From Raillietiella orientalis (Eukaryota), in contig JAYWIR010000003.1 of assembly GCA_036172245.1 (NCBI GenBank), positions 1,736,001 to 1,800,000 on the forward strand: a stretch of 64,000 nt of DNA. Direction: 5' to 3'. Numbering within the stretch: the first letter of the stretch is position 1; every line of letters starts with the position of its first letter. The notes beneath the pieces are model-generated. The model had not been told where the DNA came from. It saw only the letters and a list, made by a program, of their open reading frames with translations, and searched no databases. Both the position numbers and the translations under genes were made by a program. Below are positions 4,021-63,727 of this stretch, piece by piece.

Positions 4021-6110
4021 CAGGTAGTGAGCTTCGCGAGTACCATTCGATGTCACCGCACGCGTCTGCAACACGAAATAATTCGAGTGGCTTCGCAAGT
4101 TCAACGGGATTGAATCGGCTGTGAGGCGCTTCAGGGTGGAGGTGTTCCCGCTGTAGGTGCGCGCGGACAGAAGAACTCTTTGCTAACCCTGTGGAAGCGA
4201 CGGATGTCTGTAAACAGTCTCTTGCCCAATGGGGCTAACCAAGCGGTGGTCGCTCCGAGGGAATGATTCCAACAGACCTCCGGCTCTGACATCTGTTCTG
4301 AGGTCAGCAAAGGAGAACTTGGTGAACCGGAAGGCACGAGAAAGAGGATTTTTCATCTGTAAATCTGCAGTGTGGCTAAGTTTGTGAGGGGGCAGACCAC
4401 GAGCTGACAGAACCATAATGGAATGTACTGGAAATTGCTTACACCTCCAAGATTGAGTACTAACCCCCCCCCCTACTACTACTACGAAATAAATGCACTG
4501 CCTCGTCCCTCTGTGCTTCAACCGCTCTCGGGATTCTGCGACGAAACGGGCATTGGGAATCGACTCGATGTTTTCTGCCTGGAATTGATTCCTGGCATCA
4601 CTCTTTTCGACAACTGCCATCGCCCCACGCGTCATCCTGTTGCATTGGAACCACGCGGGGAGTGGGTCCACTTGAACAACGTTGCGAAACGGTAGTCATT
4701 GCTCCTGTTAGCAGGTTGCCAAAGAAGAAGAAGGGGAAAAAGGCGCGTTTTCTTCGCAACGTGGCAACCAGAGTTCCCTCTACAAAACGGGAACGAGTGC
4801 CAGCATCCAAGTCAAGCAGCTTCCAGATGTTCATCACGTGATCACCTTCATGAAAAAAGCAAACATGACCCGGCATGACACCAGGTCGCAATTCAACCGT
4901 CCCGTTTCCTTCCGCTTTCAAGAAACCACGCCCTACTTAATATCAGCATCCTGAATTTTTTTTTTTTTTAAAGAAAAAGCAAAAACTGACGAGTGGAAGA
5001 GGGTGAAAGAATCATCCAAACAGCAGTTACTGAAGGATGAATATGCTGTTTGTAACTGCTGTTTTGATGATTCTGCCTCTGAACACCTTGCCTCCACTTG
5101 AACGGAGCTAAATTCTTCAAAATAAGAAGGGGCTTTCAAATAGCAACTCCACGTTGTGAAGGAAATCTCCCGTTGGAGTCTGTGAGTACCTTCAGCCACC
5201 TTTCAGCGAGTTGAAAGACACCCCTTCTCGTTTTTCCATTCATTGGCGAATTTTTCCTGAAACGCCCACCGTCTGGCGGGGAACGTCTGTCCACTTCATG
5301 CAGTTGTCGGCTTCAACCATAGAAAAGAAGTTTTCTGCAGCTCGCTCGACCTCATCGGCTTGCTCAACTCCCTCTTCCACTCGTCAGTTTTTGTTTTTTC
5401 TTCAAAAAAAAAAAAAAATTCAGGATGCCGATATTAATTAGGGCGCGAATATAAAGACTTTCCTGGAATCAGTCCCGTGTTACCTTAAGCACGGTTTCTA
5501 AGTGTGGAATGAAAGTCAATGGAGGGTTTGGGGTGCATCTGATCAGCAACAGGAAGGCTGCTTTCGTGGAAATGTCCGAGGGCAATCGAGTCTCTGATCA
5601 GCTAAATATTAAATAGGATGCTGTAAGCGAATTCGGTTTGCCAGTGCATACACTAGATCTAATTGCGTCACGTGTTTTGAGGTATTTATCAATGCCGCTC
5701 TTTGGCATGCTGTTCGGCTGTGTTGATCCTGGATCCTGTCCATTCAAATTGTCAACTAGGATGGGACTCTGCCTCACATGAGGGACTCCTCCCAGTACAT
5801 TGCCAGACACGAAAGAATAGTCGAGAGATTCCTCGGCGCCGCTACCACCACTACAGGATGAAAGTGCCTCCGGAGCGGACTCCAACCACCATCCGGACCT
5901 GATAATCCAGAAGGGCAGTCGTCTTCTAATTCTGAATGTGGTCGTCTGTCCGTTTGAAAACGGGGAAGAAGCGTTCAGCACCATCAGACATCAGGAGGAA
6001 TTTGAACACGAGCGTGGCAGATGAGAAGAGGATTGCCAGCCAAGGACCTAGTCTTCTTAGTACGAGGCTCATTTCAAAAGTAGGAGCCGATCGGCTATAA
6101 AGAAAGAACA
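4021..6110 (-). pseudogene. Candidate endogenous viral element: decayed orthomyxovirus-like polymerase PA (C-terminal domain), split by the MITE
   Basis: Collinear minus-strand motifs versus influenza PA: KFLLMSD (~5985-6003) vs KFLLMD; WKLLDLDAG..EGTLVATLRRKRAF vs WIELDEIG..EHIASMRRNYF; RERLKHRGTRQCIYFVVVVG vs RTKEGRRKTNLYGFIIKG; FTKFSFADLR vs SMEFSLTDPR; FVLQTRAVTSNGT (4039-4077, same frame past one stop at 4183-4185) vs FLYVRTNGT. Confidence 0.45.
4927..5447. mobile_element. MITE / non-autonomous DNA transposon with ~75-bp terminal inverted repeats
   Basis: 4929-5003 (cgccctacttaatatcagcatcctgaa-T run-aaagaaaaagcaaaaactgacgagtggaagaggg) is the reverse complement of 5370-5445 with few mismatches. 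There is an additional internal hairpin at about 5010-5072 and no coding capacity. Confidence 0.8.
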
Positions 6111-6139
6111 AGAGAATGAAAAATGTATTGGTAGTCCTA

Positions 6140-6620
6140 AACGCCTACATCCCCATACCGTTTCTCTACGTATTCACCATTCTTTTCCAAATACTTTTGA
6201 TACCGTGGAAGAAGCTTTTCGGAAGACCCTCCGCATAAAATTCCGTCGCCTGGGAGTTCAGCCAGTTCGGCGGCACTGCAGTTTTCAACTCCTCCCCTTC
6301 CTCCTCGGATCCTTGAGCCACTTCTTGAGGTACAGGGAGACGTGGTAGTCACTGGGCACGTAGTCAGGACTGTGAGATCGAAAAGTTCCCTTTTGAATTT
6401 CCGAATCGTCTGGAATGTGTGGACAGCATGTGTTGCCAAGGCGCGCGTTGTCGTGAAGGAGAACAAGTTCTTCCTGATCTCAGTATTCCACGTGGTCGGT
6501 TCTGCTGAATGGCACGTCGCAGTTTGGAAAGTGTTCTACAGTGGACTTGCGAAGTGATGGTTGTTCGAGGCTCCATAAAATCCACCAAAAGAACACCACT
6601 CGTGAGGACGAAATCGAGAG
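6140..6620 (-). mobile_element. Degenerate mariner (Tc1/mariner) transposase, C-terminal half
   Basis: Frameshifted peptides GVLLVDFMEPRTTITSQVHCRTLSKLRRAIQQNRPRGIL, then RKFKRELFD, then EKLLPRYQKYLEKNGEYVEK follow the mariner consensus (G.LL.DF...G.TI....Y...L.KLR.AI..KR.G.L ... KL..R..KC....G.YVEK). Confidence 0.8.
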
Positions 6621-7159
6621 TCATCAGAAATTGCAACTTTGCGAGGAAGACCGCTAAAAAATTTGGAATGGGTCCTGGGAACAACTGTGCACGCAGATAT
6701 GTTTACCGACTGATCCTTTTGCGAGCTTCGTGGCTTTGTTCCATTGTATGCTGAGTGCACGTGTGAGAAGTACACTAAGTGTTCCGTTATCGGCAGGCTT
6801 TGCAATGGACTTGGCTGTTGCAAACCGTCTTCCCGCATAGTAGCCAAGAAGAGTGTTTCCATGACCTGATGCCGAGGGCTGGGTGAACGGCGCCGTTGTA
6901 GAAAATTCCCCATTTTTTCCGATGGAGAAACAGGGAACTGGAGAAAAAAAAAAACGCTGGACGCGTGTTTAGAATACGCCGCCGTAGTCCAGTCATCGTG
7001 AGGACTGAAAGACACCAACTACAGGATGCTTCACCACCTTCATTCCTTCGAAAGTTCATGGTTTCCTTGATTGGGAAAAGCAGGGGTGTGACTCTCTGAT
7101 CCCACTCTGTGGAACTGCGCTGCGCACTTACCTGTCTCGCTGTTTCTCATTTGTTCCAG

Positions 7160-7807
7160 TCGGACTGTCGAATGGGTCCATTTGAGCCCAGCCTGCAGCA
7201 GATGCTGCGTCTCATCCACAAAGACGGTGTTGCCTTCGCGCAAGTCATTCGAAGGCTCTGTCTTCGACAATCTGTGGCGCGAAACGATGTCTTCCCGCCG
7301 CTTACGCAGTCAATGCTGTCTTTCCCTGTTCATCTGACCCTGTGACTTCATTTGCATCCAGACCACCAGAACACTCTCTGGGAGTTCGAAACTTACCTTT
7401 GGCTGGATAGAAGATTTCCCAAAGTGCTTTCCGCATCGAAGGTGTCGTTCGCCACTGCTGTGCGAGTGGTTCGTGCCATTCAGAAGTGGATTCAGTTTTG
7501 CGCACCTGAGGGGGAGCGAAAAGTACCTGGAGCAGAGAAAGCCGAGATCGACAGGCCGAGGGCATTTCTGTTGCCCAAGGTGGCAGCAATGCGTCACTCC
7601 CTGGGACCGCAGCCCTCGGGCGCCTACCGCGAGGACCCGAACGAGTGCATCATCTGCTACGAGAAGAACCTCAACAGCGTGCTGTACACCTGCGTCCAGA
7701 TGTGCGTGTGCTACGGCTGCGCCCTGCAGCATTGGCGGGGTGCAGAGGGCTTCTGCCCCATGTTTCGCGCCTCCATCCGTGATGTCATGCGATTCTTCCG
7801 GACTTGA
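7160..7807 (+). pseudogene. Neuralized-like C-terminal RING-finger pseudogene fragment
   Basis: NECIICYEKNLNSVLYTCVQMCVCYGCALQHWRGAEGFCPMFRASIRDVMRFFRT* matches the Neuralized C-terminal RING pattern (C-x2-C..SVLYxCGHMCxCxxCA..QW.G...CPxCRA.IRDV). The zinc ligands His and the last Cys are replaced (Q, F), and an in-frame TGA at 7343-7345 separates ORFs 7109-7345 and 7352-7807. Confidence 0.7.
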
Positions 7808-9061
7808 CCTGATCCCTATGGAAAGAAGGTGCACGTAGTCTCGGTCGGGGTCCAGTCAAGGCCTGCCCCACCAACCACTACCCCTCCTCCCATCACAGAC
7901 CGGATGGCGCCCAAGCCCAGTGCGATGATTTCCTCCTCCCGCCTTTCCCTCCAGCCCTTGCTGGAGGAGGTTTTGCCTCCACCGGATTCCCCGTGGGAAC
8001 TGCAGGAAAAAACAAAACTCCACCAAAAGCATGGTGCTTAAGAATTCCACTTGAATTCAGCAAATGGCAATAATTATTTTCTTAAACGAAAAAAAAGAAA
8101 AAAAAAATACCTGGAATTTCAGGCAACATCTTATCATGAGGTCATCGTTTCGGGCGGAATTGTGGCTCAGCGATGTGGTCTGTGGTTGTGCGCTTGAGCC
8201 TCCTTGTAAATCTTTGAGTAGCATGGGCTGGTTTTCAAACGTGGCTGGCTGAGAAGAAATCCAAAAGGCGAGCTCGTACTAGCAGGATGCTCCCTTTATT
8301 GCTTTGCTGTGAAAAATTTAAAAAAAAAAAAAAAAAAAAAATGCGAGCTAACAACAGCTGCAGTCAATTTCCAATCTTCGGCATGTGTTCGGTCCAATGT
8401 GGCGTTGCCTCCAAAACTATGAGCCTCCGGAAGTGGTGCCTTGCCATTAATTTCCACGTGGTGATTGCCAGTGTAGAAGATATGGAGATCAACTGCTTGA
8501 AGAGCGAATAGTAAATTTTTTTTTTCTTTTGGCAGTTCCGACAAAGTGCACATGGGGGGGGGGGGGGAAGAAGTGCCAGCAACCACCTTTGGTTCCATTG
8601 GCAGGTAGGATCCGCATGTTTTTCCAGAGTGTGGCTCGGTTCGTTCCAATTCGAATTTTTCATCTTGGCTTTTTGCTGAATTGGTGAACTTCGTAAGCTT
8701 CAGACGGTTCAAGAAGAGATCGAAGGTCCACTGAAGGTTCTTGAAACTGAACTCGGAAATTCCCCTTGGAAAAGAGATGCCGCTGAAGTTCGTTTTGCTG
8801 ACCCTGGCAACCGCAATTTTCTGTTTAATTTCAATGAGAGAAAATACTTGGGTTACAGCTTCCATATAAGGTGATTTTTGATGCAAGAAATGGTTGTAAC
8901 TGATATTAAAAGCACAATGAAAACTTTTGAACTTTTTTTTTTTTTCACTCTAGAGATTCATTGTAACCACCTATCGGTCATGAATAGTTGATCAACTTTC
9001 TAATATGGGTGCCATCTGATCTTTAAATTCCAAAACTTAGTTCCTTATATTCGTCAGACTT

Positions 9062-10344
9062 AAACCTCTGTGTCGCCCCAAGGAAGAAGGAGACCCTGGG
9101 AGGCAGTCTCTAGGACACGCCATGGACATCATGGATATGCGGCAGCTCATGCACACCATGTACAATCGGGGCGACTGGCCGTACGCTGCTCACAGGGCTT
9201 ATCTGTTGTTGAACAACTCGAGGGGCCTGATGACTGCGTTCCTAGGCCGGGCAGGGAATGGTCAGCCATTGGCCCCACTTGGAAAAGGAAACAGGCACTG
9301 ATGCGGAAGCACTAAATCAAGATCATGCCTAGAAGCAAGGAACTCTGGGAGGAAGAATTCATCCCGGCAATCCCCTGGATGCTCCCAGTCCCCAGTGACA
9401 GCGGAGCTGGATCTACCAATCAACCTACAAAGAATACAACAACGAAGAAGAAGTGGGTTCTTCCACCACTCCAGGATACTAAAATATGTCGATAGGATGA
9501 CGGGAAGGTTCACCCACAGGAACCGCGAAGTATGGAAGGACTACATTAGCTACGCGTGGTCCAGGGTAACCAAACAAAATCTACGCCGCATCATGAGAAC
9601 AAGAAAAAGACACTAGTGCCCTCCAGGAAGCTGCGCATCGCTACGGGGCTGACACAGTCAACCTGTTGGCGATCGGGACGATACTCTGGAGGAATGACCT
9701 ACCGCCGGACACCCAGGACAACCTCCTGATGTTCTATCATGGAGGAATCCTGAGAGGATCCAGGATGAAGTATTTCACCGGTAGAAGAGAAGATGGAAAT
9801 TTTCAAGGCGTGTGGAGACAGGGGCATGAGACTTCCCGTCCTAATATGTCCCACAATGCACCAGGACTGCCAGACCCTGAAAAGGGTTATAGGGCTGCCG
9901 AACACCGCGAGGATGGAATGTTTCAGGATGTTCCAGGATGATGATGTCCGGGATGTTCCAGGAAATCGGAAACGTTCCCTCTACAACCCGATGGTAAGGA
10001 CAAATATCTCCCTATTCATAACCGCTATCCTGATACGATGGTGGAAGATGAGGACCTCCAGGACAGCCGCATCTTCCGTGGAGATTCCTCGAGGAATCAT
10101 CCAAAAGGAGATCGGAATAAGGAACTCTGGACAAGTGCCCGCTTGGACGTACCGATACATCTTGAGAAGGATTGAGGACATCGTCCAGGCACACCCAACG
10201 CCAATTCTTTTCTAGTGCAGGCCTAAGTGCCCAGAAGTGAAAACTCGTAGTGACACCTAATGTTTCCAGTTTGTTCCTGAATGCATGAGTTTATAGTATG
10301 AATGATAAATAAATTTGCCTCACTTCTTGTGGGATTGGGGAAAA
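9062..10344 (+). pseudogene. Retrotransposed intronless insert bounded by a 17-bp target-site duplication; candidate endogenous orthomyxovirus-like nucleoprotein (NP) sequence
   Basis: A perfect direct repeat ttatattcgtcagactt lies at 9045-9061 and 10345-10361. Between them is a purine-rich, frameshifted reading frame (ATG 9122 to TAG 10215), then AATAAA at 10308-10313. Peptides PPDTQDNLLMFYHGGILRGS and LICPTMHQDCQTLKRVIG resemble influenza NP EDLTFLARSALILRGS and MACHSAAFEDLRVLSFIKG (by-eye comparison). The repeat is certain; the NP identity is tentative. Confidence 0.55.
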
Positions 10345-13300
10345 TTATATTCGTCAGACTTCCGTTTTGTCACATCTCCAAATGAATTTCTTTCAGTTCT
10401 TCATTCAGTGGCTGAGTTCTCCTGGCTCAACTCTGACTGGTACTATCTAAAGGAGAAGCTCTTCTCCAGTTACTAAGGCCGCGGCAATGATTTTGGCATG
10501 CAAAAATGGTACGTCGTTCTGGATTCCTCGTCAGAAACCATCCCTGAGGCAGCGACTCGAGGAGTGTATTAAATCTTGAAAAGATCGGGGTCACTTCCAC
10601 CATTGTATTAGCAGTGCCATCTAATTTGTCATGGAGAAATTATTTCGAACTACCTTTGTATCAACTAGATGGGCGTAAACTATGAAGTATTCTCTCGAAA
10701 TCTCGATGCTAAACGTGTACCCTGTTCAGCTTGGATTACAATTTACTTTCATTCCTCAACCCAGATATGGATCTTTTTCATCTTCTCAACAAGCTTTCTC
10801 CGTGTACCACAAGCTTTTATCCGTGTTCCTGCAAAATCAGTCTAACTTCAATCAATGTAACTTCACTTCACTGCTCTCCCTGCATCCGACCAAACAAGGT
10901 AAGTTATCGATATCTGAGACATTGATATCTGGGAATGATTTCTGGCATTCCTTCTAGATTTGCGATCAGTTTCCGGAAGTAGCCATGGAAGCTACCGGAC
11001 ACTAAGTTTTTCCATCGTTTTTCGGACATCTAATGCGCCCTGCAATTCAGTTCCACGGTGAACCACTTTGCGTTACCAGAATAGCTGCTGTTGGTAGTAT
11101 CTAAAATGCTGCAGCAGTTTTTCATTCTCCAGATGACCCGATGTGAGCAGTCAGTGCTGTAGATAGTGAATCCTGCGTCAACACCATTCAGCCTGGCATG
11201 CATCAGTGAATTCGTTCGGGTTCCCGAAATTCCAGAATGTGCATCGTTCGAGTTAGAATTTGCAGAGACGGGGAAAACATCGGCAACGTGCTCACCAGCT
11301 ACCTAGTAGAGAAGGAGGTAATGTATTATTGTTCTTCGAAACTTACAGCATCCCGAGCATCTCATCATACGTGTCATATAGGACAGTCAATAGAAAACGA
11401 TGCTTTCTCTGCGAAGAGTCCAAGATTCTTCACTAGCAAATAATGGAATTATTTATAGGGCGTCTATGTGCTGGCGAAGCAGTGTGCATAAGGACTTTCC
11501 TGGCGAAGCTATTTCGCAAAAAAAAATTAATAAAAGGTATTCAGATTGGTGTGGTCCTCCTAATGTGGTCTGCTACCTCATTGACAATGATTAGATGGAA
11601 TCCCAAGGGACTCTTAGAAGGCGCTTATAAGAATATGTCATGATTCAGGATCTGATTGGCACGAAGCCGGTCTGAAATGGTTTGATTCCTATCGATGGGA
11701 TGGCACCGGTGTCACCCAATAAGAACAAGTGCTGTGACAGATGTCGTTTTTCTTAAGATGCAACATGCTCCTCGAATAGTTGCCTGAGGAGTAGCTTAGT
11801 GCCTCTTTATTAATGGAGAACGAACACTGTCAACCAGTCATTCAACCATTTTGAAACGGTGCACTGCTTCGCCAAATGAGTTGGCCCCCTGGCATGCATC
11901 AGTAAAGCAGAGCACATGGATTGTTATTTAAAAAGATAATCCTTCGTTCTCATTATTCTTTATTATTCTTCCATCTTCGGGTTACACGCTCCCTATGGCC
12001 AGGAAGCTCCACAGCCTTCATGCAATAGCCAGCCTCATATTCTTACACGCTCCCTTCCATTCATCGTCTCTTCTTTGAGGTTCCTTTGCGGTGCTGGCAT
12101 CTGGCAGACGTTGTACGACCATTCCTCTCCCTACTCTTATATTTACGAGTACACTTTTTTCAATATATGGTACAAATAACTCCCAATTATTAAGAAAAGA
12201 AAAAAAAGGAGGGGACGGAGGTTCGCTCTTTTAGCTTAACACGACGCATTATCCCTTCAACATGTTAAGAATCTGCGAGTCAAGCTTGTGCATGCCACTG
12301 TTCGTGGCACATATCCTCTCAACTCAAACCGCATTGCTATTGAAAGCACACCCTATGTCCAGAATGATGGGCCAGGCAGGTCTGGAGCTGGTCGAATCCC
12401 GGGCAGCAATTTGCTGCTGCCCTACGGTTGCTTCTGCGATGAGGCGGAGGGCTGCGCCCGTTCTGCAGCACCAACAGACGAGGATGCTGCTGGCAGTGAT
12501 TAAGAATGTGCGGCAGCGCCTCGTCAAATCTCTGAGACACGTTCGATCTTCCCTTCCTAGGAGATCAACATCGGGCAGCGCGTACTGCAGCCGCAGGATG
12601 GGATGCTGCAAGCGGGGAGCTTTGTTCACTCTGCGATGACCACGGAAGTCCTCGTCCCTGACGAATATCCTTTTGGTTTTCATGATGACAATCGAATGAA
12701 CAGGTCACGTAAAGTGAACTCATCACCTCCTCGACTCATGCCGTCTTGTGGCCAGCTAGTCGCAGTCCACCCGTAGCCGAAGGACGAGAAAATAGAGCAA
12801 CCAAAACGAGATCCAAATTGCAGTCCACAGGGGAACTTGGGGCAGTAGGGGCGGGGAAACTTGAGAAAAACCTAAGAGGGGAGGGGAGCAAAAAAGTTGT
12901 CAATCCGGCTGTCACCGAAGATCCACCTTCGCGACCATGCGCCTCCACCCGCCCTCCGCGACGTCGCGCGTCACTCCCGCAAAGGTCTGCTTTTGCAAGG
13001 ACACCTGACCCCCGGAAGCGCTGCGCGCGCGTGTTCACGACGACGTCCGGCTACAGAGCTCGTCGGTGCCTTCCTCTCCCCCGAGGCCTCCTTTCCGTGA
13101 AGGCGCCAGCCAGCTGACCACCGTCTCGACGCCTGACTTCCAGAAGGCCTCCCGTCGCGAGGTCCTGAGGACGTCCGGCGCCTTTCACCTTCGCCCCCTG
13201 CTCCCCCGATGCCCTCTCACCGCGAGAGCTCCAAGCTGCTGGCTGCGATCACCTCGTCCCAGTTGCCTCCGGAAACTTCCGTTCGGGACGACCACTACTG

Positions 13301-13360
13301 TTCTTCGACGTCGGCGTCTCCAGGCTCGAGAATCTGTCGACCCTCGGATCCAGGGTAACG

Positions 13361-13660
13361 ATGGACATGGAGCTGCTGATCCCCAGGAGGTTCACTAGTA
13401 CGAGGACGAGCTGCTGTCCCGCTTCCGGTCTCTGGAGGACATCATCGACGTGCGCCGGGCGCTGATCCACAGGAACTCCCTGATGCGGCTGGACTCGAAG
13501 ATCCGCACGGACGCCCGCTTGAGCGCGCGTGGTCTGCGCTTGACCTTCCGGAAGATCATGGAGCTCTACGAGAGCACCAAATAGGACGTCGTCGCCCTGC
13601 TGTGCGCCCGCAAGCGCCGCCTGAGCAGCCACTCCGAGGGGCATGCAGACGAAATGCGTT
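13361..13660 (+). pseudogene. Decayed GC3-biased coding fragment of unknown identity
   Basis: YEDELLSRFRSLEDIIDVRRALIHRNSLMRLDSKIRTDARLSARGLRLTFRKIMELYESTK*DVVALLCARKRRLS has nearly all codons ending in G/C, with in-frame TAGs at 13396-13398 and 13582-13584. Confidence 0.45.
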
Positions 13661-23100: not shown

Positions 23101-26100
23101 TGCATCACATGAGAGTTCCAGAAGATCGTAAACTGAACTAGGAAAACCGAGTCTTCGTTTTTTCTTTTTGCTACCAGATTTTTCAAGCCTTTCTGATTAT
23201 CTGCTTGCATTGGACTGTTAAATGTTCGTCAAATTCGCTACCTTTGGCTGGAGGCATGCTGAGAGATCCCCGTCTTCTGACCCTGTCAAAGACTTGTGCA
23301 AAGTTCTTAGGCATCAGCTCAGTAACGTTCCCGCAGACCCTTGAAGGGTCTCCAGAGTAATTTACTGGGGAATGATTGTTTCAGAAATAGTCAGGCTTTG
23401 TGCACTTTCGTCATCTTCGACGTTTTTCGTTTCTTCTCAGAGGCTGACACGAGGCTTCTGGGAACTGACATCTCCTGTAAGAAATGGTACGCTGGAAAGC
23501 TTTCCGATTCAAAGGTCATCTAACCCGTTGTATTCACAACACGTTTAGCGATTTCAATTGAGGTGCAGGCAAAAGTGGTTGTGCTGAACTTCACCTTACT
23601 GACTGTCTGTGTCCTAGCAAACAGCGACCTTAGTTCCCCAGATCTAAAAATCCGATTTCCCGGTTCCAAGTTATTGTCAGACCATGCCAGTAAGTTTGTC
23701 TCCCTTCCTTCTCTTCCTCAATTCAATCCTCTTGTGGGAAGCTCCTCATCAAAAAGTCTTTCAAGGAGCACAATGCCTCAAAATCTACTCCTGGGAGAGA
23801 ATTTTTTCATCTCTTCCTTTCCACTGTTCTTCAAGGAAAGACTACAAAACCAGTGCTTTTGAGCTGCAGAGCTTCCCTTGGGACATCTTTTTAAGAGCTC
23901 TATTCCCAACTCCATTCGAAGAATACCATGGCTTTACGCTCAGGTTTGTTTCTGAATACCGAGGTACTCTGTGCGCACGATGATCGTTTTATGAGGAAGA
24001 ATGAGAAAACAATGATCCTAGCAGTGGAATAAGGCAAAATATTACCGTTTTTTCCAAATGGGAGGAAGCACTATTGTGACAGGAAAGGAAATGTGGAACA
24101 AAGCCTTCTGGTGTTGGCAGGACTCAGCGGAAATCGGGAAGCAAAAGGAGCGGCAGATATGATATTGCGCTTTTTGGCAGTCACTCAGTAGCAGTCGAAG
24201 AACACTGAGGAAACACTGCTCCTTCCTCAACATCTGCAGCTACCCCCCTAGTGGTTTTCGACTCTACTGACAATGCATGGTAACGCAGCGTCTCCATGAG
24301 TCATTTGCTGTGATTGACCCGTTCTTTGATCCGCAAGGAAGAACTCCCAGCCCATTTCCGAAGCAGATGAAGCCGCTTTTCGAGAATCGGAGGACTGCAC
24401 CGAAAGAAGTTCACAGATTCAGCCAGCAAAACTAGAAGTCATTTTCGTAGACCGAAGCTTCTTCCAGTTTAAGGAAATCGAAAGGTTGCTGTTTCTATGG
24501 AAACCTTGCTCGAATCTCACTGCATCCATCACAAGAAAAAAGAGATGGCTCGCAGAAAGATGGTTGCCCACGATGTTTGATCGAGTCTCGCGCTCCATAA
24601 ATGCACGAAGTTCGCACTCGTGCACGAGATGCCGAGAATTTCTCCAGCCGGTGATGCTGTCCCTTGAAGATTTCGGAAACGGGAGGAAATCGCCAGTTCT
24701 ATTGCAATGGGCATTCACTGTCAGAGGGAAGGCACTCGGACCGAGAGGAAATCCGCGGAAACCCGAGGATGCCTTGACCTTCACCAAAGGAGAGGAAAAA
24801 AATATTCAATGTGGGGTTTCGGGTTTCTGGGAAAGAATTTGCTTCCCCGCGAGCATCGCCAGCCACTGGAGCAACCGGCGTGTGCTCTCGCACTGTGAAA
24901 GTGGCTTTTCCGTTTCACTCCCATTCAGAATGATACCTTTCAGTACCGAAGCAATTATTTTTTGGGTTTCTTTCCGAGAGCATCCTTTCCATTTGATTCA
25001 TATGCAGCAAGGAGAATTCGAACGAAAGAGCGGTGCGAATTTCGAAAAGTGCGAAAATGAGGTTCGTATTTTCCTGAATTCCTTTCAAAAAAGATTTGTT
25101 GATTTTGAGGGGAAGGAAGAGGGGTGGGGGGGAGAGGTCACTGAAGAAGGAGCTCTTCGCTCGAGCAAATTTCAAATGGAAACTCCCGACCTGCAGGATC
25201 ATCCAAGTCTGCGGAGAGCATGTAAAGAGATGACCAGCGAGTCAGGCGTCTGCTTGCCTGTGGGAAAATCGGGCTGCTCGCCCGATGTGCACGATCGCTG
25301 CTGTTTCGAGTTGGCACAAGCCACGTGTGCCGTCTTTCGCGGCCATCCACTCGATGAGGAACATCCACACGACCACCAACAGCTCATCCCTCTCCTGCTT
25401 GAGGTGCTCAAAACTCACTTGAGTATTGAAGGAATCGAGGAACACGATAAGATTGGGGGAAGATGGGGGGGGGAACACTTCTGATAAAATCTTCGAACCG
25501 GAAAAATGATCCAAGTGACGACTGACGTGGATGTGAAGACAAAAATCTCGCCCACGATGCTCAGAGCGTGCTCTTAGAAAAACATCCATACTGATGGATC
25601 AGATGGTGTGGCAGCAGCGGGAGAGTTCCACGGGAACGTGTCCCCTTTTTTAGTACGAGCTCGAGAATTCGCCACATAAACACCATGTTACCATGTAACT
25701 TTCCTTTCTCCAAGATGTAACTATGATTCCAGACTCAAGACCAGAATGACCCTGCTTTTCACAGAGGAGGCAAAGGAGCTTGCTGCAGATAACACGGCCA
25801 TTCTGTATCACCCATGACGCAAGCAGCACGAAAATACACCTAGTTAAGCAAATCAACAGAAACCCCTCGTCACACGAGGCGTTCAATTCAGTAAATTAAA
25901 AGCCATACCAATGTACACAATGTAATCTGTTGTTATGCAAATGCCTAAGCAAGGCATTCTGGATTTCCATTCCACATCTTTGTTCTCCAGCTTTCCATGT
26001 ATGACACCGGCTCTTCAAACCAGTCCGCTTCCATCTAGGGTTTCAGCTGGATCCTGGTTCATGGAAATCCAGATGAGAACAGGAATTCCGCTGATTCTGG

Positions 26101-28700: not shown

Positions 28701-29255
28701 GCCACCATGAGGGACTACTGGGCGGGTCTACTTGCTTCAGGGGTCTGAGCGGTCGCTTGTGACGGGCACTTGGGGTCGTCGTGCCGTCCGAGCACCCAGG
28801 CGTGTTTCCTGGTACCTGCGACCTCACAGTTGCGCCTACCACCTCGACGGTGACTATCACTCTCCCGTAGGGAGGACAGCGCTTCCGGGATCGCATCCGG
28901 TGATCCCTTGCGCACGGGGTGAGAGGGGAGGAAGGATAATAGATCTCCCTCTTCAAGGGGTCTTGGTGGAGATGCACCTTTCCTCCAAATGGATGGTCCT
29001 GATCCAGTTGGAGGAGCTGGAATGAGGAGCTCAAGGGAACCCCACTGCGGTTTTCCTAAGTCGCGCGCGCAGGGACCGACGGGATCCGCTGGAACCCGGG
29101 ACAAGTCGAAGCCACCACGTCCCATCGGCGTCGCCAGCAGCCGCCTCGGAGAGGCGGCGGGAGCTCGGTGCTGCCATCTTCAAGGCGTATCTTCCATGGA
29201 TTCTCCTCCCCTGGTTCGTCAGGGCGATGGTTCAGCAAGCAAGAAAGCTCATGAG

Positions 29256-30539
29256 GAAGGAAAGGGGGAGGGGGAGAGAGTGGCAAATCGGCCGTGTCCG
29301 TGGCCGGGAACAGGAGGGAAGGGACAGCAGATCGAATGGGGGTGAAGGAGACGCGGCACGGCTGCTCCTGGTCCCTCACAGCCTCTGCGAGATGCTGGAG
29401 ATTTCCCGAGAAACTTGAATTCCGAGTTCAACATGCGAGGCCACCTGGCCCCAGACCCTTACCAGTGAGGCTGCTTTGCGCGCGACCCCCCTCGGCTGCT
29501 TTTCCGACCCTCGGACTATGCGGGTGGCGGCAACGCACCTCGCATGCAACTAGGCGTTGCAGCGAGAGTCCATCTGGACCTGGGTTTCCGGGAGCGCAAG
29601 GCGGGGCAGCTGCTGCCGCCTCGGCGAACACCCACGTGCCGCTTCCTCCGCCTTTGCAGTCAGCTTCTTTGGTTTCCTTGCTCTTGACCTGCGAATCGAC
29701 TTCGTGACCCTCTGTAGCGGTTTCGGTCTGGGAGGGCTCCCGGACCGAAACCGGCGGCTCTCGAACGATGGCCGACAGGGCACGCCCCACAAGTTGGGCT
29801 CGCGCCCACGAATGGTTGTTTTCTTATAGCGACGGGAGCAGCCCGGCCAATCCTTCCCTCAGACCAGAGGAAGGCGGTCGTTGTCAGCACCAAAAGAAGC
29901 GCCTTCCAAGGTGATGGACGTCTCCGGGCTCAACTCTCAGCCTGTCGAAGCGGATGACCGAGAGATTTCAAGTTCCGACGGGGGAAAAGAGCTGCAGACA
30001 GTGATCCACCACATGATTCAGCTAAAATGAAAGTGGTTTACGTGAGGAGCCTTCGGAATTTGGGGGTTTTCTTAAGCACGGGGGACCAGTTGTCAGCCTC
30101 CACGTCTCCTGAATTGTAAAAACGCGTGTTGTTGTTGCTGCTGATGTTCGCACTCACCTGCTGCGGCGTGCAGGTGTCATTTTCGACTGACACCTCGGCT
30201 GAATGCAGCTTCATCCCAGCTCCCCTTTAGTAGAGCTCCATCATCTCTCAGATCTCCTTTCTGTGAGTAGAGGGTTCGACCCACGTAGCTGTGCGCGGGT
30301 GTTCCGAGCCACGCTGCTGCTGCCGGCGCCAGCACTCGTGAGCCACCTGCCGTCGGACCGGACCAGAGGTCAGCATCTTGCGAGCAGCTCGCCGCATCTT
30401 CCGACCACCACGTGCTTCCGCCGCTGGGGAAGGAAAAGCGGGAGGAGGAGACTGGCAAATCGGCCGTGGCCGGAGGCAGGAGGGAGGGGACGGCATATCG
30501 AACGGGGGTGAAGGGGACCTCCTTGGTCCCTCACAGCCT
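29256..30539 (+). repeat. Two diverged copies of a ~120-bp repeat (about 29256-29384 and 30428-30539)
   Basis: Shared core gaaggaaa..gaga(g/c)tggcaaatcggccgtg..caggaggga(a/g)gggac(a/g)gca(g/t)atcgaa(t/c)gggggtgaagg..ggtccctcacagcct. Confidence 0.8.
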
Positions 30540-38397: not shown

Positions 38398-41300
38398 GAA
38401 ACTTCTGCGACCACAACCAGTGCCGCAACGGAGGAGAGTGCGTGTCCAACGGCAACGTCTCGGGATGCCTGTGCGCCAGAGCGTACTTCGGCGAGTTCTG
38501 CCAGTGCAGCAGCGTGATGGACTGCATCGACCAGAAGAAGTGCGGGGAGCAGAGCGAGTCCCTGTGCCAGAGGGTCAGTTGCCACCTGTTTCACTGCGTC
38601 TGCCCGGTGGGATCGTTCTTCAACGGGATCGAGTGCGAAGGTACGCCTTGCTCCTCTCAGGAAGAAGTGGGATGAGGGGGGGGGAGTGGAAGGCGGCAGG
38701 GCAGACCATTCCGTCCCGGGAGCAGACCATCCCTCCCTGAGTACCGGGCGTCTTCCTCCCATAGGAAGAAAGGCCGGTCGTTCTGCGGACAGTCCAGAGA
38801 CCATCACCACCACCACTCTCTTCATGCACCACGTGCAGCAGCTGCAGAGGGCGCGCTCTCTGCATATGGCGAGGCGCGCTACAGTTGAGGCTGGGTGCGC
38901 ATCCGCCAGCACGGGCTCTCGACTGCGGATTTTTCCAGACCGGAAGAATAGAAGAAAGAACCGGATACGGCTCTTCCTTCCTTTCTCTGCTACCCCCTCC
39001 CCCCCTGCTCTCTCTCTTTCTCTCCACCAGATTTGCTAGCGGTGAGTCTCCACCACCTCGGGCGGCGAATCCTCGGGCAATCGCACGCGCATTCATTACT
39101 ATCTCAGCTTACGAATCCCCGAAGGAAGGCACAGCGGCTGCCTTCCGAGGGTGTGACAGCGCGTGGACGAATGCCTGTGAGGGGGGTGGGGGGTGCCTCC
39201 ATGTGCACTCGAGAGCGCGCGCTTTTCGTTCCCGAGAGGAAGAGCCTCCGGAGCTCACCCCCTTCCTCCTCCACGGGCACGCAACCTTCGAGCGAGACCG
39301 GGGGACGCCTTCCGGCTCTCCTCCCCTCTTCCACCGCTTCTTTCCGGGAGAGGAGGCGTTCCTGATCCGGCGTGCCTGGCCCCATGCCAAGCTCTCCTCC
39401 GCCTTCTTCCCTTAGAGATCAAGCTCTGCAACCTCCTTAACCCCTGCGACCATGGAAACCAGATCTGCAAGAGTGATGGGAACACCTTTCAGTGCCTCTG
39501 CAAGCCCGGATGGATTCCTGACCCCAAACTCCCGGAGTCGTGCATCGGTAAGTGACGGGAGGGAAGCGGAGGGTGAGGTGGGGGAGTGAAAGAAGTCGCG
39601 AGGTTTCCCTCCTTGCGGCCGCGGGATGCGGCTCACCTCCTATATTCAGTTCCCTTCCATTCCTCGTCCGGGAGGGGAAGCGAACCCTCTCACCCCGTTG
39701 CCATGCAAGCCGAGCAGGCCGTGAGCTCCTCGCGTCCCCCAGGAAGGTGCTGCAGCGAGTTCTCTCCCCTACCCCCATCCTCCGAGCAGCAGCTCCTTGG
39801 CGACGGCGCGCGGAGACCTCCCCTATGAGAGACTGCAGGGAGAGGGGAAAGAAAGAGATGGGTGGTTGAGAGGAGGGAGAAGGGAACCTCCCGCCCTGCT
39901 GGCGCTGATTCTCCTCTACAGACGAGCCCAACTGCGATCCCGGGGTCACACCGAGGCCGACCACCAAGCAGGTTTCTTCCGCTCCCATCGAGGTCACCGA
40001 CACCGAGCACCCTGAAGGAACAACGACCCTGATGACCGATCTGGAGTCTCCAGAGACATCCGCGGAGACGGGTAACACCGACGAGGTGTCCTCTCCGGCA
40101 TGGACCACCGTCACGGGCCCTCCCGACTGGACCACTTTCGCTGCCGCCGGCGACGCCACCTCTGAGGGCGTTGTCGAAGCTCTCGCACCGCGCCGCGACA
40201 ACCGTGACCTGGAGGAACTCCCAGGTAAAAGAAGCCCCGGGGGAAGGGACGGGGGCGCACGAACCTCTTTCCTCTTCCGCATCCCGAGGGAGGTTTGCTC
40301 TCCCCCCTCCTCTTCCACCCCTCGCTTCCTCCCCCCTCCTCCCCCAATGCCTCGCGCGTGTCATCTGTCGTGCAGCCGACGGTGCAACCGAGCTGCTGTT
40401 CCTGACCATCCGGAAGGATGGTGGAGGCGGGCACGGCGACATGCGGACGTCATGGGACGTCACCGAGGAGTCGCCGCCGGCGTCGCGTCACCACTGCGAC
40501 CCGTCGACGAGCGTCTGCCTGGAGACGGATGGGGGCTTCGTCTGCGCATGCCTAGGCGACCGGTTCCCCACGGACATCGAGGACCCCAAGCAGTGCTCAG
40601 GTAGGAAGGGAAGGCGGGGAGGGGGTGACGCCTAGGGAAGGGTCAGGGCGGCACGCGTGCCCGCCGCCCCTTTGCAGCAATCGACCTGTGCGCCACCATG
40701 AAGGACGGCTGCCAACACCTGTGCTCGGAGAACCGCTGCGGGTGCCACGAGGGCTTCCTCGCCGCCAACGGGACCTCCGCCAAGCCCGGATCCTGCGGTA
40801 AGTTCGCGACCTCCCTTCTCCTCCCTTCCATCCCCTTGATCCTCACCTGGTTTGGGAGGCGAGCCGCTTTATCACTCCTTTGCAGTGCCGGAGTCCCCTT
40901 GCGACCTCGACTGCGGCAGCCACGGCCAGTGTGCCCGGGTCGGAGACGTCCCTTCGTGCGTGTGCGACCGCTTCTTCTCCGGGAAGCGCTGCGAAGAACG
41001 TGAGTGAGAGGAGGAGTCCAGCTTCCCTAACTTCCCTCCACTCACCCCCTACCCTGCCTTCTCCCCAGTGACGACGTCATGCGCCGACATGGTGTGCCCC
41101 AACAACAGCGTCTGCCTGCAGATGAAGAACAGTGGCCACATAACCTGCCAGTGCCGCCGGGGCTACACTCCCGTCCTGTACCCCGACGGTCGGCCCATCC
41201 TCACAAGCAGCGGGTTCCCTCCGTGCGTAGGTGAGTGTCCACTCTCGAAGGAGAGAGGGGAGGGAAGAACCTAAGAAGCGTCTTCTGCCCCCCAGTCCTC

Positions 41301-47300: not shown

Positions 47301-50300
47301 TCCTTCCAGACGTGAACCGCACGCTCATCTTCGCCCTGACCGTGACGTCCCACGCCGTCGCTGGGAACCCCGCGGACGTGTCGAGACACGTCGACAGCAC
47401 GGTGAGCCTCCAGGGCGGGGACAGTGCCTCCAGCAGCTTGCTCTCTTCCTTCTTTATCCATTTCCTGGGGTCTTCCAGTTGGAGAAAATCATTGCGGTAT
47501 ACGACCCGGACGTACGGATCGAGTCAGTGCAAGGCTCGCCTCAGGGCGACCAGGCCTCTTTGCGCTTTTACATCTTCTCCACGCAGTTCAAACTCTCGAG
47601 TATCCTGCAGACCATCGTACTCAGCGCGTGCATCAGCCATCCCCTCGTCCAGGGAGACCGCTGCTACCTCTACGACTACGACCAGCCCGAGCAACGGTTC
47701 CACGAGCTTAGCGACGTCCACGTCAGGGGTAAGTGGTCTTCCCTTCACAGTGTGGCCTCCGTGCTGCGCCTTGCTCCCCTTTTCTCGACCCCAAAAGACT
47801 CCCTTATCCCCTCTTCACCTATAGGCGTTTACTCTTCCTCGCTCCTCTGAGAACTCATTCCTTTGCATGAGGAGGAGGAGGAGGACGGCCGTGGAGGCAG
47901 TGCAGGCATCTCTCTCCCCCTCTCTTTCCAAGTCCCCTAAGGCTCTATCTGTGGGCCTCGATGGACAAGGGACCAAGCATCCTCTGGTCCCTTGTCTGGA
48001 TCCTTGTCCTATCACTGGGTACCGAGAAAGGGAGAGAGGAATGGCCGCTTCCACCCTGTTCGCGGCTCTTTGCTGAAGTCCAACTTCAGGACGCGCCACC
48101 GCGCGCTCGCATCCTTGCCCAAGGGGGAAGAGGTGGCACGGAGAAGGCAAATTGCTGCATTGCTGCAAATCCTGCATTTCTCGAGACCGCTACTTCCTGG
48201 GCGACGTGGCTGCCTCCAGAGAGATGCACTCGCTCTGGTCCTTTTCATCACCAGCATTCGCGTCCCACGGGAAGTCAGCATGCTGCAGGGGAACCCCGCC
48301 GCTCCAGCCGAACTTCCATTCTCTTCTTCCTTCTTCTTCTTCCCTCACCTATTCTTGCTTTTGTCATTATTCCCATCTCTCCTTCCGTCCCCTCCCCCTT
48401 TTCATCGTTCTTTCTCCTTTCCCTCTTCTTTCTTCCTCCCCCCTCCTCCTCCTCCTCTTCTGCAGCTCTTCCGGCTCTTCTTCGTTGCCCTCCTTCTTCC
48501 TTCCTTTCCTCACCATTCCTTCTCTTTTCCCTTTTCTTGCTCCTCCTCTTCTTCTTTCTTCTCTCATTCCTTCTCCTCACCTGCCTCTTCTTCCTTTGAC
48601 TTCCTCGCCTCCCTCTCCCCCTTTTCCTCTCCTCCTCAGGATACCTGGGAAAGAAAGGGTTCTATCTTCTCAGACGTCGACGCCTGCCAGGAGTTTCCGG
48701 AGGAGACGCGCTGCATCCGCAAGGTCCACGACTGCGTCTCCGACAAGCAGCACTCCGGCCTGTACCGCTGCAAGTGCTCTGAGCACCTCTACGAGGTCGA
48801 GAGCACCATCGGACCACCGCACTGTGCTGGTAAGACCTTCGAGCGTCTCCGTGAACGCACGCGAAGGGTTCGTCCCACTCTGACCTCTCCCTTGCTCCAC
48901 ACCCTCCGTCCTTCCTTGGAGTTTACCGGAAAGAGGGGATGGGATCTGCAGGGGAAAAGGGAAACGGATTCTCGCCAGCGTCCCCTCGTCATCCGCCGCA
49001 GATATCGACGAGTGCCGCCTGGACCCCTCCTGGTGCAAAGACACCAACGCAACCTGCATCAACCGGTTCGGGGAGCTGCCCCTCTGCCAGTGCGTGAAGG
49101 GGTACTTCAAGGACGAAGGCGACGGCAAGTGCAGACTCTACTGCGACCTGTCGCAGACGCCACCCTGCCTCAACGGCGGGAAGTGCGTCGATGGAAACTT
49201 CACTTGCACGTGAGTACGCGGCTGCGCGCCTTCTTTCACGCGCGCGCGCGCTCAAAGACGGCCTCCGGGTCACTAGGTCGCGTTCCTTTCCGCTTCCCTT
49301 CCTGCCGCTCGCGGTCCTCTACTAGCCGGGTGTGGGTCGCCGCCCGTTCGGGACAAGACGAAACCAAACAACCAGCCTGTAGGAGAAAGGACGTGCACGG
49401 TCGGGCGAAGGAGGGGATGGCTATAGCGTCGCGGCTGCGTGTGGCCGTAGGGCGTTTCCCCTTCGTGCCATGTAGCACACCGTTGAGTGGGAAGGATCCG
49501 GACTGAACCAGTTGGACCAAAGCTCACCATCGAAAGAGGAAAGAGGATTAGGGGAAGGGGCGCCATCGCTCTCACACACACACTCGAGACACCTCCCTTG
49601 GCCCCTCCTGGCTCGCTCACCACTTCCCGTGAGGAAGGCCGGGATCGGGAAGGCGATGGTCAGTTAGACACCAGTGTTGACTCTTGGAGGAACTCCTGGA
49701 GATACACGCAGGGGCTGCTATTCCGACCTTTGTCTTCCTCGCTCCACGTTGGGACGCGAAGTCAATCCCTGCTTCCTTGGCTCGGTCTCCAGGGAAGGCG
49801 GTTCCCCTAGGACGCCGCAATGCACCTGCGAAGCGACGGATGGCGCTGAATTTAGCCTGACATTCGAAATTTGGCACCGCCTGCTGTACAATTAAAGACA
49901 GCGACGGTTACGCAAAGCAGAAGATGCCGCGGAGTTTGCTTCACCCGACGCGTCATCGGGATCCAACGGGATAACGCACGCGGAGGTAGCATCAGCAACC
50001 CGCAAAGTGTGGGAAGTGCAGTGGCACTTGGGACTTTCGGCGGTTCCTGTCTGGAAGACGTCCACGAGTTTGAAACCGGCCGCTGGCCTTGCTGTCAGAC
50101 AACTCTCCTCCCCTCTCTCCGTCTCTCCCCCCCTCTGCTCGAGGGACAAAAACAGCCGGATAAAGAGCGCGCTTCCAACCTTCCATCTGCTTCGGAGAGG
50201 GGTAGTAACCTCGAGGAACGTTGGACAAAAACCGTACGGGGCATTCCTATCGGCGAATTGGGCAGTTCCGACTTTTCGAGAGCGTCACTCGAAAACGGAG

Positions 50301-62739: not shown

Positions 62740-63727
62740 TTTAGACTTAGCTGTGAATAGTTATGATCCTGAAATTCAAAACATGAGAATATGCAATCGA
62801 AAAATTCAATCTAGCAAACAAATAGAATTTAAAATCAATCGAATTTCAATCCCTTTATTATAAAGTTGCAATCTGATCTACGTCTCAGCTAGTTTTACTC
62901 TTACTATGAATAATAGATTCGATATCATTATATTTATGCGATGGGCTGAGACAAGTACTTGCCTCATAGAATTTTTCAGATCATTTGGATATATTGCCAC
63001 ATTGACTCGAATAATTAACAACTTTTAGTTCAGTGCAAATGGTACAATAACTAGAATAATGAGAGTTTAGACAATACTTTACTCGATTGCACAGCTGTTA
63101 TTCATTTGTCATTTAACATAGATAGAGCACAATCCCATTTCATTAATTGTTTGATTAAGTGAAATTAACTACTCTAAAAATTCAAAAAAATACTCAAGCA
63201 AAATATGCTATGCAAGATGTTTCAGTGAATGCAAAATTCAAACGACAAAGAAACTACTTATTCCTATATCTGTTCCATATCGAACAGATTTACAGCAAGC
63301 AGCAAAGAAAAGCATGAATTCCCCCCCCCCCCCTTCCCCTCAGTGTACCAGTCTAGAATTCATTTACTTGACAATATCTGTTGTCTCCAAGAAATCTTTT
63401 TGTAAACCGAAAAGAAGGACAAAGATTCGGTCATCATACACAGATAGAGCCATAGCCAACCATCAATAGAAAGATTCTAGGAAAAAAAAATCGATATGCT
63501 CTTAGAGAAATCCATTTATATCTTTCGAATACAACTTAGAAATGTGAAACGACAACACACCTTATGAGGAATGAAATAATTGACAAATCCGAATACTTCA
63601 TTCATAATCTGGCACTTAACAGGCTCCGATAAAACTCAGATTAGAGAGCTCGCTAGATTGAATTTTTCGATTGTATACTCTCATGTCTTGAACTTCAGGA
63701 TCATAACTATTGACAGCTAAGTCTAAA
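62740..63727. mobile_element. ~1-kb non-autonomous TIR element (MITE-like)
   Basis: 62740-62815 (ttagacttagctgtgaatagttatgatcctgaaattcaaaacatgagaatatgcaatcgaaaaattcaatctagc) is the inverted complement of 63652-63727 with about 5 mismatches. Confidence 0.75.

Follow-up and report, generated by a model that had tools for sequence, protein, structure and literature searches.

Non-autonomous retroposons that encode a protein of their own and lack a reverse transcriptase include HAL1 ('half-L1') of mammals and HeT-A of Drosophila, while in animal genomes an insert of ~1 kb flanked by a target-site duplication (TSD) is most often a truncated LINE tail. Among virus-derived sequences, passages of two reports describe bornavirus-like N elements (EBLNs) as LINE-1-mediated insertions of viral transcripts (PMC6115245, PMC4982594), and passages of three others report arthropod genomes with many viral elements, orthomyxovirus-like ones included (PMC6580184, PMC10675110, PMC4384744).

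The insert described here lies in a 64-kb stretch of DNA (the window) and can be compared with each of these systems. Like HAL1 and HeT-A, it is short and discrete, has a single reading frame that encodes a basic protein, is multi-copy and presumably trans-mobilised, and appears constrained in frame between subfamilies; it differs in lacking Pfam-level similarity to L1 ORF1p or gag-like families and in being broken in the present copy, and its unit length and shared 5′ end are judged from one contig. The likeness to EBLNs lies in a size of ~1.2–1.3 kb, a single frame of ~365 codons and flanking TSDs, whereas the insert bears no sequence similarity to any nucleoprotein in the Pfam, phmmer and PDB searches, its 3′ end follows an AATAAA, and a CpG observed/expected ratio of 0.87 sets the host apart from vertebrates. 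Orthomyxovirus-like elements of ticks and other vectors (PMC6580184, PMC10675110) share with it a plausibly invertebrate host, but such elements are defined by BLAST-level similarity to viral proteins, of which the insert shows none. With LINE-made retrocopies, it shares a TSD in the 7–20 bp range, an mRNA-like unit without a flanking promoter and an end just past the polyadenylation signal; it departs from them in its tail of only four A residues and in its source, which is no known single gene but a family that has many copies and subfamilies.

The insert is bounded by two copies of the 17-mer TTATATTCGTCAGACTT (Table 1), as a preliminary description of this locus had claimed. Specifically, this 17-mer has exactly two matches in the window when up to two mismatches are allowed, both on the plus strand, and the 17/17 perfect duplication directly abuts the insert, within the ~7–20 bp range of retrocopies made by LINE-mediated target-primed reverse transcription (TPRT). 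It is also the longest exact direct repeat in the window (non-low-complexity, copies 100–8000 nt apart), and by a rough estimate ~0.03 pairs of 17-mers ≤8 kb apart are expected per window. Taken alone, the repeat is suggestive rather than overwhelming; it becomes convincing as a TSD because it brackets a unit with an ATG 60 nt in and an end 27–31 nt past an AATAAA. That the pair is coincidental and no insertion took place is, in our view, very improbable: comparable repeats of 16 nt do arise in 4 of 30 mononucleotide shuffles of the window, but the longest ones measure 13–16 nt and 17 nt is never reached, the 3′ end of the bracketed unit lies at the expected distance from the AATAAA, and the unit spans the same stretch as a repeat family that a public run (X1, below) reveals independently. 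The intact duplication had further been read as the mark of a young insertion, an argument that is weak, as a perfect 34-nt TSD pair fits a few percent divergence. The joint 9061→10345 of an empty site is absent from the six joints listed from run X1, a run without right-flank cover.

With respect to layout, the ATG, the broken frame of ~1.1 kb, the AATAAA and the 4-A tail noted previously were all confirmed on the sequence. The short leader is a different matter: 60 nt do precede the ATG, but the insert has an open frame starting at its very first base (and indeed from 9041), so that these 60 nt are at most a possible leader. GC by codon position in these 60 nt (0.75/0.55/0.50, hand count) is unlike the coding-like pattern downstream. 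The insert terminates on GAAAA, 27–31 nt past the AATAAA, and is composed of 29% A, 24% C, 26% G and 20% T, with an AT skew of +0.19 on its sense strand. No unusually stable fold was found in the 3′ untranslated part (z = +0.77, with 155 of 200 shuffles folding at least as well), and blastn and tblastn gave no second copy of the insert within the window. The perfect TSD and the mRNA-like layout with an end after AATAAA therefore make the insert a well-supported target-primed retro-insertion, and the earlier assignment to an RNA-derived insertion with a LINE-type TSD stands.

Table 1. Features of the insert and its flanks (window coordinates)
Feature	Position	Strand	Basis
5′ TSD copy, TTATATTCGTCAGACTT	9045..9061	+	exact match to 3′ copy
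Retroposed insert, 1283 nt	9062..10344	+	bounded by the two 17-mers; covered by many diverged X1 contigs
Possible 5′ leader, 60 nt; no in-frame stop, so possibly coding	9062..9121	+	frame 1 open from 9041
Putative ATG at 9122 (context GCCATGG) and first frame-1 segment, ending at TGA 9299-9301	9122..9301	+	ORF map; GC by codon position 0.54/0.44/0.71, coding-like
Middle part without clearly kept frame	9302..9596	+	frame 1 open 9302-9613, frame 0 open 9316-9492
Frame-2 segment with DNLLMFYHGGILRGS peptide	9597..9779	+	frame 1 to frame 2 near 9597-9616; GC by codon position 0.56/0.39/0.66
Frame-0 segment, 148 codons, stop TAG 10213-10215	9769..10215	+	frame 2 to frame 0 near 9769-9790; GC by codon position 0.47/0.44/0.59
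3′ untranslated part, 129 nt; AATAAA 10308-10313, terminal A4 10341-10344	10216..10344	+	sequence
3′ TSD copy	10345..10361	+	exact match to 5′ copy

The coding-like region of ~1.1 kb is broken at least three times: it contains an in-frame stop, and its frame changes at least twice. Three segments of the insert show coding-like GC by codon position, resembling the neighbouring RING-finger frame (0.58/0.45/0.70), and the profile is flat in both frames of the middle part, where X1 copies carry small insertions and deletions at 9392–9400. The TMHQDCQTLKRVIG peptide sits in the 148-aa, frame-0 piece. Arginine is the commonest residue of the insert protein (38 of 316), and this arginine-rich protein may be a retroposon's own, that of a host orphan gene or viral. 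When frames were assigned beforehand from the ORF map, codon position 3 held 15 of 24 differences between copies among the differences listed, which number 40 of 97 (binomial 0.003). In the frame-2 segment the corresponding figure was 9 of 14 listed differences, including a run of six at 9701–9722. This third-position bias shows a family frame that was, by all appearances, functional in the recent past.

The copies in question come from run X1, the one public run having words in common with the stretch (word share 0.08). Forty X1 contigs were aligned, with identities of ≥99%, 95–99%, 90–95% and <90% in 1, 1, 10 and 28 cases, respectively; a 220-nt contig is identical to 9993–10212. These contigs fall essentially only on the insert, at a depth far above that of the flanks. 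Summed depth is 5–20 per 250-nt bin over 9012–10266 and locally 66, and it is 0 in every bin of 10267–13500 and of 6753–8258, so that the repeat-family signal ends inside the right edge of the insert; these values come from a single run, and contig depth is not copy number. One contig of 1342 nt, about the length of the insert and of even depth (12.8), aligns piecewise between 9238 and 10006, a placement judged by depth, alignments between copies being patchy. The insert therefore belongs to a lineage-specific family that is present in many copies and falls into several diverged subfamilies. This fits a repeat or retroposon better than the single captured viral transcript proposed earlier, although repeated endogenisation is compatible with it. 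Neither a parent gene nor an intact copy was found in the window, the protein database searches or run X1.

Searches for relatives of the protein were uniformly negative. At curated thresholds, five translated pieces matched no Pfam family, the best being SelB-wing at E = 0.21. For the 148-aa piece, an exhaustive phmmer search of 1,835,955,588 representative proteins gave no match at E ≤ 0.001, a word-index search gave none among proteins of near or greater length, and a PDB sequence search gave none at E ≤ 10; no nucleoprotein in the PDB sequences matched the insert pieces searched. The DNLLMFYHGGILRGS piece had no credible match in protein and viral-contig searches, and the ESM Atlas and metagenome contigs held no credible relative. 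Matches to IMG/VR viral contigs were chance ones, each grown from an exact 8-residue seed, and Foldseek against BFVD returned nothing at E ≤ 0.001 for a single-sequence AlphaFold2 model of the 148-aa piece, of too low quality (mean pLDDT 52.8) to weigh for or against an NP fold. Overall, no homologue was found among ~15 billion predicted proteins as represented in the databases searched. An SGNH/GDSL esterase, as occurs in ORF1 of some LINEs and is marked by conserved blocks I, II, III and V or a Lipase_GDSL match, was considered and rejected: the only likeness was to a bacterial GDSL hydrolase, through an exact seed of 8 residues that arose by chance, and no Lipase_GDSL match was found by Pfam in the insert.

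We consider that the insert is probably a retroposed, mRNA-like RNA of ~1.3 kb from a repeated lineage-specific family, reverse-transcribed at a staggered break and now a dead copy. An RNA with the layout of a polyadenylated messenger (a short leader, a well-placed ATG, a frame of ~364 codons and a 129-nt trailer with AATAAA) would have been copied at a staggered chromosomal break, most likely by LINE endonuclease and reverse transcriptase acting in trans, and fill-in of the 17-nt stagger would have produced the perfect duplication. The source would be a repeated family with diverged subfamilies rather than a single-copy gene, and its reading frame would have been under protein-level constraint as the subfamilies diverged; the in-frame stop and the frame changes would mark the present copy as dead. 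We infer the LINE machinery rather than see it, because among the ORFs of ≥100 aa in the window, 231 in all, the 222 that were scanned contain no LINE reverse transcriptase or endonuclease domain. The 5′ end would be complete and the unit length discrete, yet the frame extends to the 5′ edge with no stop, so that a longer, 5′-truncated element is possible. Against this explanation stands the short tail; where LINE retroposition depends on poly(A), young copies usually carry longer ones.

Such a discrete mRNA-like retroposon or retrocopy is the most likely identity of the insert, and the 5′-truncated tail of a longer autonomous LINE is a less likely one, which we regard as unlikely though serious. 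The sequence between the TSDs would then be the last ~380 codons of ORF2, past the reverse-transcriptase domain, plus the 3′ UTR, with the ATG at 9122 incidental. The commonness of such tails among TSD-flanked inserts of ~1 kb speaks for this, as do the frame open from the first base and the A-rich sense strand (A 29% vs T 20%); multiple copies, subfamilies and third-position bias are as in LINE lineages, the 4-A tail would suit poly(A)-independent LINE clades, and C-terminal parts of ORF2 often escape Pfam. What the insert lacks is any similarity to a reverse transcriptase or to ORF2: no piece matched RVT, Exo_endo_phos, zf-RVT or another LINE family in Pfam at E ≤ 1, and the last 148 aa found no match in a set of 1.84 billion representatives, where many annotated ORF2 proteins are to be expected. 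A discrete element is further favoured by the strong initiation context of the ATG 60 nt from the edge, by the first 20 codons being without the high GC3 found downstream, by an X1 depth that is roughly flat (12–20) over the insert rather than rising steeply towards the 3′ end, and by the even-depth 1342-nt contig of approximately whole-unit length. That the insert is an ordinary processed pseudogene, derived from a host gene or gene family that is lineage-specific and highly expressed, appears rather improbable. Such an origin would account equally for the mRNA-like layout, the GC by codon position is like that of a host frame, and a likely processed RING-finger pseudogene adjoins; however, for an expressed animal gene from a sampled lineage the absence of homologues would be unusual, and several subfamilies, at depths well above those of the flanks, suggest that amplification was sustained and not a matter of occasional retrocopies.

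In terms of a viral origin, the preliminary description had seen an orthomyxovirus-type nucleoprotein (NP) in the peptide, and no Pfam, phmmer, PDB or viral-contig match of the TMHQDCQTLKRVIG and DNLLMFYHGGILRGS pieces bears this out. The identity is thus unsupported, with zero sequence matches to the NP family; orthomyxovirus NPs measure ~450–570 aa, and the frame of ~364 codons is shorter. To our knowledge, the 5′ end of the insert is also unlike the known orthomyxovirus termini. A wider form of this explanation, in which the insert is an endogenous viral element made by LINE retroposition in trans of a nucleoprotein-like mRNA, from an RNA-virus lineage too far from sampled viruses, ranks behind both the retroposon or retrocopy and the truncated LINE tail, and we give it a small chance. 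An AATAAA near a 3′ end belongs to nuclear Pol II 3′ processing, whereas mRNAs of negative-strand viruses end by polymerase stuttering, which counts against this reading, as the insert carries the signal 27–31 nt before its end. The GC3 of the insert is similar to that of the host-type frame nearby, a repeat agrees better with the high multiplicity and the near-identical copies, and no likeness to viral proteins emerged from Pfam, phmmer, PDB, IMG/VR or the BFVD fold search with its poor model. On the other hand, the protein is basic, inter-copy variation is mostly synonymous as expected for repeated capture of a constrained virus, the complete mRNA-like unit with its TSD matches the layout of EBLNs, which passages of two reports describe as LINE-1-mediated insertions of viral transcripts (PMC6115245, PMC4982594), and arthropod genomes are rich in such elements, orthomyxovirus-like ones included, according to passages of three others (PMC6580184, PMC10675110, PMC4384744). 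The look of a viral nucleoprotein in a peptide does not in itself count as evidence for a viral origin.

The insert is a clean, textbook retro-insertion flanked by a TSD, ordinary in kind, and its main use is in annotating the repeats of this genome. It would carry greater weight if the orphan frame were the fossil of an unknown virus or the protein of a new, selected family of non-autonomous retroposons. Both bolder readings are long shots: the family would represent either a nucleocapsid-type mRNA, captured repeatedly in the germ line, from a never-sampled RNA virus lineage too remote for any current sequence profile, of which the host genome would be the only record, or a new class of retroposon without reverse transcriptase whose orphan RNA-binding protein is under selection.

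Elsewhere in the window lie 28 other A/T runs of ≥10 nt. None is accompanied by a convincing TSD, and for three there are only 10–11-nt matches 1.3–7.6 kb off. The RING-finger fragment, 700 nt upstream of the insert, is without two zinc ligands and is followed by an A22 run, which suggests that mRNA retroposition happens in this genome.

The piece between positions 9062 and 10344 is bracketed by two exact copies of a 17-mer, TTATATTCGTCAGACTT, which confirms the repeat at both insert ends reported in the preliminary description. This 17-mer occupies exactly two sites in the window, 9045-9061 and 10345-10361, both on the + strand, and the window contains no third site when up to two mismatches are allowed. 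In an all-against-all k-mer scan of the window, the pair was the longest exact direct repeat outside low-complexity sequence with copies 100-8000 nt apart; the longest repeat in 30 mononucleotide shuffles was 13-16 nt, and 17 was never reached. By our own rough estimate ~0.03 such pairs are expected by chance per window, so the repeat by itself is suggestive only, and what convinces us of an insertion is the bracketed content rather than the 17-mer alone. This content comprises an ATG in a GCCATGG context, coding-like sequence that ends in a TAG, and an AATAAA that the final bases of the insert follow at a distance where a cleavage and polyadenylation site is expected. A DNA transposon was rejected, as no terminal inverted repeats were seen by eye and a 17-bp target-site duplication (TSD) is longer than the usual 2-10 bp of DNA transposons. 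The window holds no second copy of the insert and no Rfam family at gathering score, and the fold of the 3′ UTR is no more stable than shuffles. Some 850 nt downstream of the insert lies a separate exact 16-nt direct repeat, CCTGGCATGCATCAGT (11192-11207 and 11888-11903, copies 696 nt apart), which may represent a further TSD pair or have arisen by chance: shuffles give 16 nt in 4 of 30 cases.

Features of the insert and its surroundings (GC is given for codon positions 1/2/3)
Feature	Position	Strand	Details
Mariner-type transposase fragment	6226-6702 (also delimited as 6367-6702)	-	Pfam Transposase_1, E=1.2e-7
RING-finger (zf-C3HC4_3) frame	7346-7804, TGA to 7807	+	two zinc-ligand positions replaced vs CGRRF1; GC 0.58/0.45/0.70, for comparison
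A22 run	8320-8341		~510 nt past TGA of RING-finger frame
Insert	9062-10344	+	1283 nt
ATG	9122	+	context GCCATGG
Frame 1	9122 to TGA 9299-9301	+	ORF map; GC (9122-9298) 0.54/0.44/0.71, coding-like
No frame clearly kept	9302-9596	+	ORF map; GC flat in both open frames
Frame 2	open from 9597	+	holds first peptide quoted in preliminary description; GC (9597-9779) 0.56/0.39/0.66, coding-like
Frame 0	9769-10212	+	148 codons open; holds second quoted peptide; GC 0.47/0.44/0.59, coding-like
Stop TAG	10213-10215	+	closes coding-like sequence of insert
AATAAA	10308-10313	+	final GAAAA of insert 27-31 nt further on
EGF / calcium-binding EGF exons	39181-39552, 40036-40632, 48884-49210	+
Carnosine N-methyltransferase exon	57995-58411	-	139 codons; Pfam CARME 4e-50; PDB 5yf0 6e-54

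With respect to coding content, the broken reading frame that had been noted earlier is indeed present, with at least one in-frame stop (the TGA at 9299-9301) and two frame changes ahead of the closing TAG. The open frame at the 5′ side reaches the first base of the insert and continues back to 9041, which leaves a 60-nt "leader" unproven; a role as 5′ leader for the 60 nt before the ATG is plausible.

Evidence that the insert is not solitary comes from X1, a public sequencing run whose contigs have 8% of sampled words in common with the window; no RNA run was listed as sharing words with it. Over 6000-13500 there are 40 X1 contigs, of which 1, 1, 10 and 28 are ≥99%, 95-99%, 90-95% and <90% alike, respectively. 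Their summed depth in five 250-nt bins spanning 9012-10266 is 12.2, 16.9, 19.2, 5.0 and 20.4, with a local peak of 66, and falls to zero in all bins of 10267-13500 and 6753-8258; contig depth in this run is no measure of copy number. No X1 contig bridges the site of insertion, with the flanks uncovered; the small cover of 8510-9011 comes at least partly from a contig that touches a pair of T-runs. A contig of 220 nt matches 9993-10212 without a difference, and another of 1342 nt (depth 12.8), close to the insert in length, aligns in pieces between 9238 and 10006, as judged by depth. The simplest reading is that X1 is a low-coverage genome run, from this species or one close to it, where only repeats assemble, and that the insert belongs to a repeated family with several subfamilies. 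Among the 40 of 97 differences between copies that were listed, 24 lie inside the insert, and 15 of these 24 fall at codon position 3 (binomial 0.003) in frames that had been set in advance on the basis of the ORF map. Six of the 15 form a run, at 9701, 9704, 9707, 9710, 9713 and 9722. This bias indicates that the subfamilies diverged with the protein being kept, either because the family encodes something that it needs or because a functional source that was itself evolving gave rise to copies again and again.

In terms of protein identity, the preliminary description had proposed an orthomyxovirus nucleoprotein (NP), an assignment that none of the Pfam, phmmer, word-index, PDB, ESM Atlas or IMG/VR searches supports. 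The protein is arginine-rich (38 of 316 residues counted). Pfam returned no family for five translated pieces of the insert, and an exhaustive phmmer search of 1,835,955,588 representative proteins with the 148-aa piece (the frame-0 translation) gave 0 matches at E≤0.001. Word-index protein searches found nothing for this piece among longer and near-length proteins, or for a 61-aa piece among longer proteins. When three pieces were compared with PDB sequences, a PDK1 PH domain at E=0.08 was all that came up, a match taken as chance. In the ESM Atlas the 61-aa piece scored 0.79 at best, under the lead threshold, and the 148-aa piece had no usable match. Scans of IMG/VR (four) and of metagenome contigs (one) produced solely chance matches extended from an exact 8-residue seed: L001 over 10 residues, L003 over 22, L004 and L005 over 17, and L002 to a bacterial GDSL/SGNH hydrolase with 21/53 identities counting the 8-mer seed. 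The L004 match is out of frame within a long frame that resembles a polyprotein and, as judged by eye, one of potyvirus type. A reading as an SGNH esterase of LINE ORF1 type was dropped, as the insert has no Lipase_GDSL match and its would-be blocks are not spaced as they should be. A single-sequence AlphaFold2 model was poor (pLDDT 52.8), and Foldseek of this model against BFVD gave no match at E≤0.001, an outcome that carries no weight given the model's quality. Orthomyxovirus NPs are also considerably longer than the insert frame, and both the 3′ end after an AATAAA, rather than at a stuttering signal, and the high repetition of the family count against such an origin.

We consider it moderately probable that the insert arose by trans LINE retroposition of an RNA from a repeated orphan family. 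A LINE enzyme would have cut the chromosome with a 17-nt stagger, and an RNA of ~1.3 kb with a polyadenylation signal would have been reverse-transcribed in trans, giving a copy at 9062-10344 that is now dead. The breaks in the frame may post-date the insertion or have been present in the source RNA; the untouched 34-nt TSD pair fits a divergence of a few percent by our own estimate. The tail of a 5′-truncated LINE would account for the frame being open at the insert edge and for the short A tail, and has prior frequency in its favor, but the ATG context, the flat X1 depth, the unit-length X1 contig and the complete absence of ORF2 similarity speak against it, and we judge it unlikely. That the insert is the fossil of an unsampled virus appears improbable, as does, to the same degree, its origin from an orphan host gene as a processed pseudogene; coincidence of the two 17-mers is very improbable.

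In how it works, the insert is similar to a processed retrocopy, or to a retroposon that bears an ORF but is non-autonomous. Its architecture is the same as that of the bornavirus-like N (EBLN-type) viral retrocopies (PMC6115245, PMC4982594). Endogenous viral elements, in contrast, are defined by similarity to a viral protein, which the insert lacks, and it would gain interest only if a whole-genome survey or family profile showed a viral link for the orphan frame or tied it to a new retroposon protein.

Retroposition also bears on the immediate neighborhood. The RING-finger frame with its A22 run probably represents an E3-ligase gene copied as a processed pseudogene, suggesting mRNA retroposition at work in this genome. 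No TSD was found for this unit, and when 28 A/T runs of ≥10 nt were examined for TSDs, only three weak matches of 10-11 nt came up. No reverse transcriptase or endonuclease domain was detected in 222 of the 231 window ORFs of ≥100 aa (ordinary stop-to-stop ORFs; the nine left out all lie between 55346 and 56697). The mariner-like stretch at 6226-6596 is matched by X1 contigs of depth ~2, its diverged copies being ~85-89% alike.

Elsewhere, CpG observed/expected is 0.87 for the window, a ratio unlike that of vertebrate genomes. The carnosine N-methyltransferase exon, which matches the human enzyme at 6e-54, far better than the 2.9e-17 for another PDB entry that bears this name, sits in an AT-rich stretch (GC 0.32-0.40), in contrast to the GC-rich 38-50 kb. 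These two observations make the host an animal and probably an invertebrate. The three EGF exon blocks probably form a single multi-EGF gene in a GC-rich region (0.55-0.67) with much pyrimidine-rich low-complexity sequence. The longest stop-free frame where GC content is ordinary, 384 codons at 24330-25484 (+), has no Pfam match. An apparent tandem duplication (period ~1.17 kb) occupies a GC-rich stretch at 29255-30481, where 55-nt stretches (29255-29309 and 30427-30481) are 71% alike and two exact 16-mers recur, at spacings of 1155-1172 nt. Candidate MITE-like or foldback elements are two inverted repeats in the regions 4929-5445 and 62737-63730: in one, arms of 48-57 nt (84-96% complementary) around A/T runs are separated by ~370-400 nt, and in the other, 79-nt arms (92% complementary) are separated by 836 nt.
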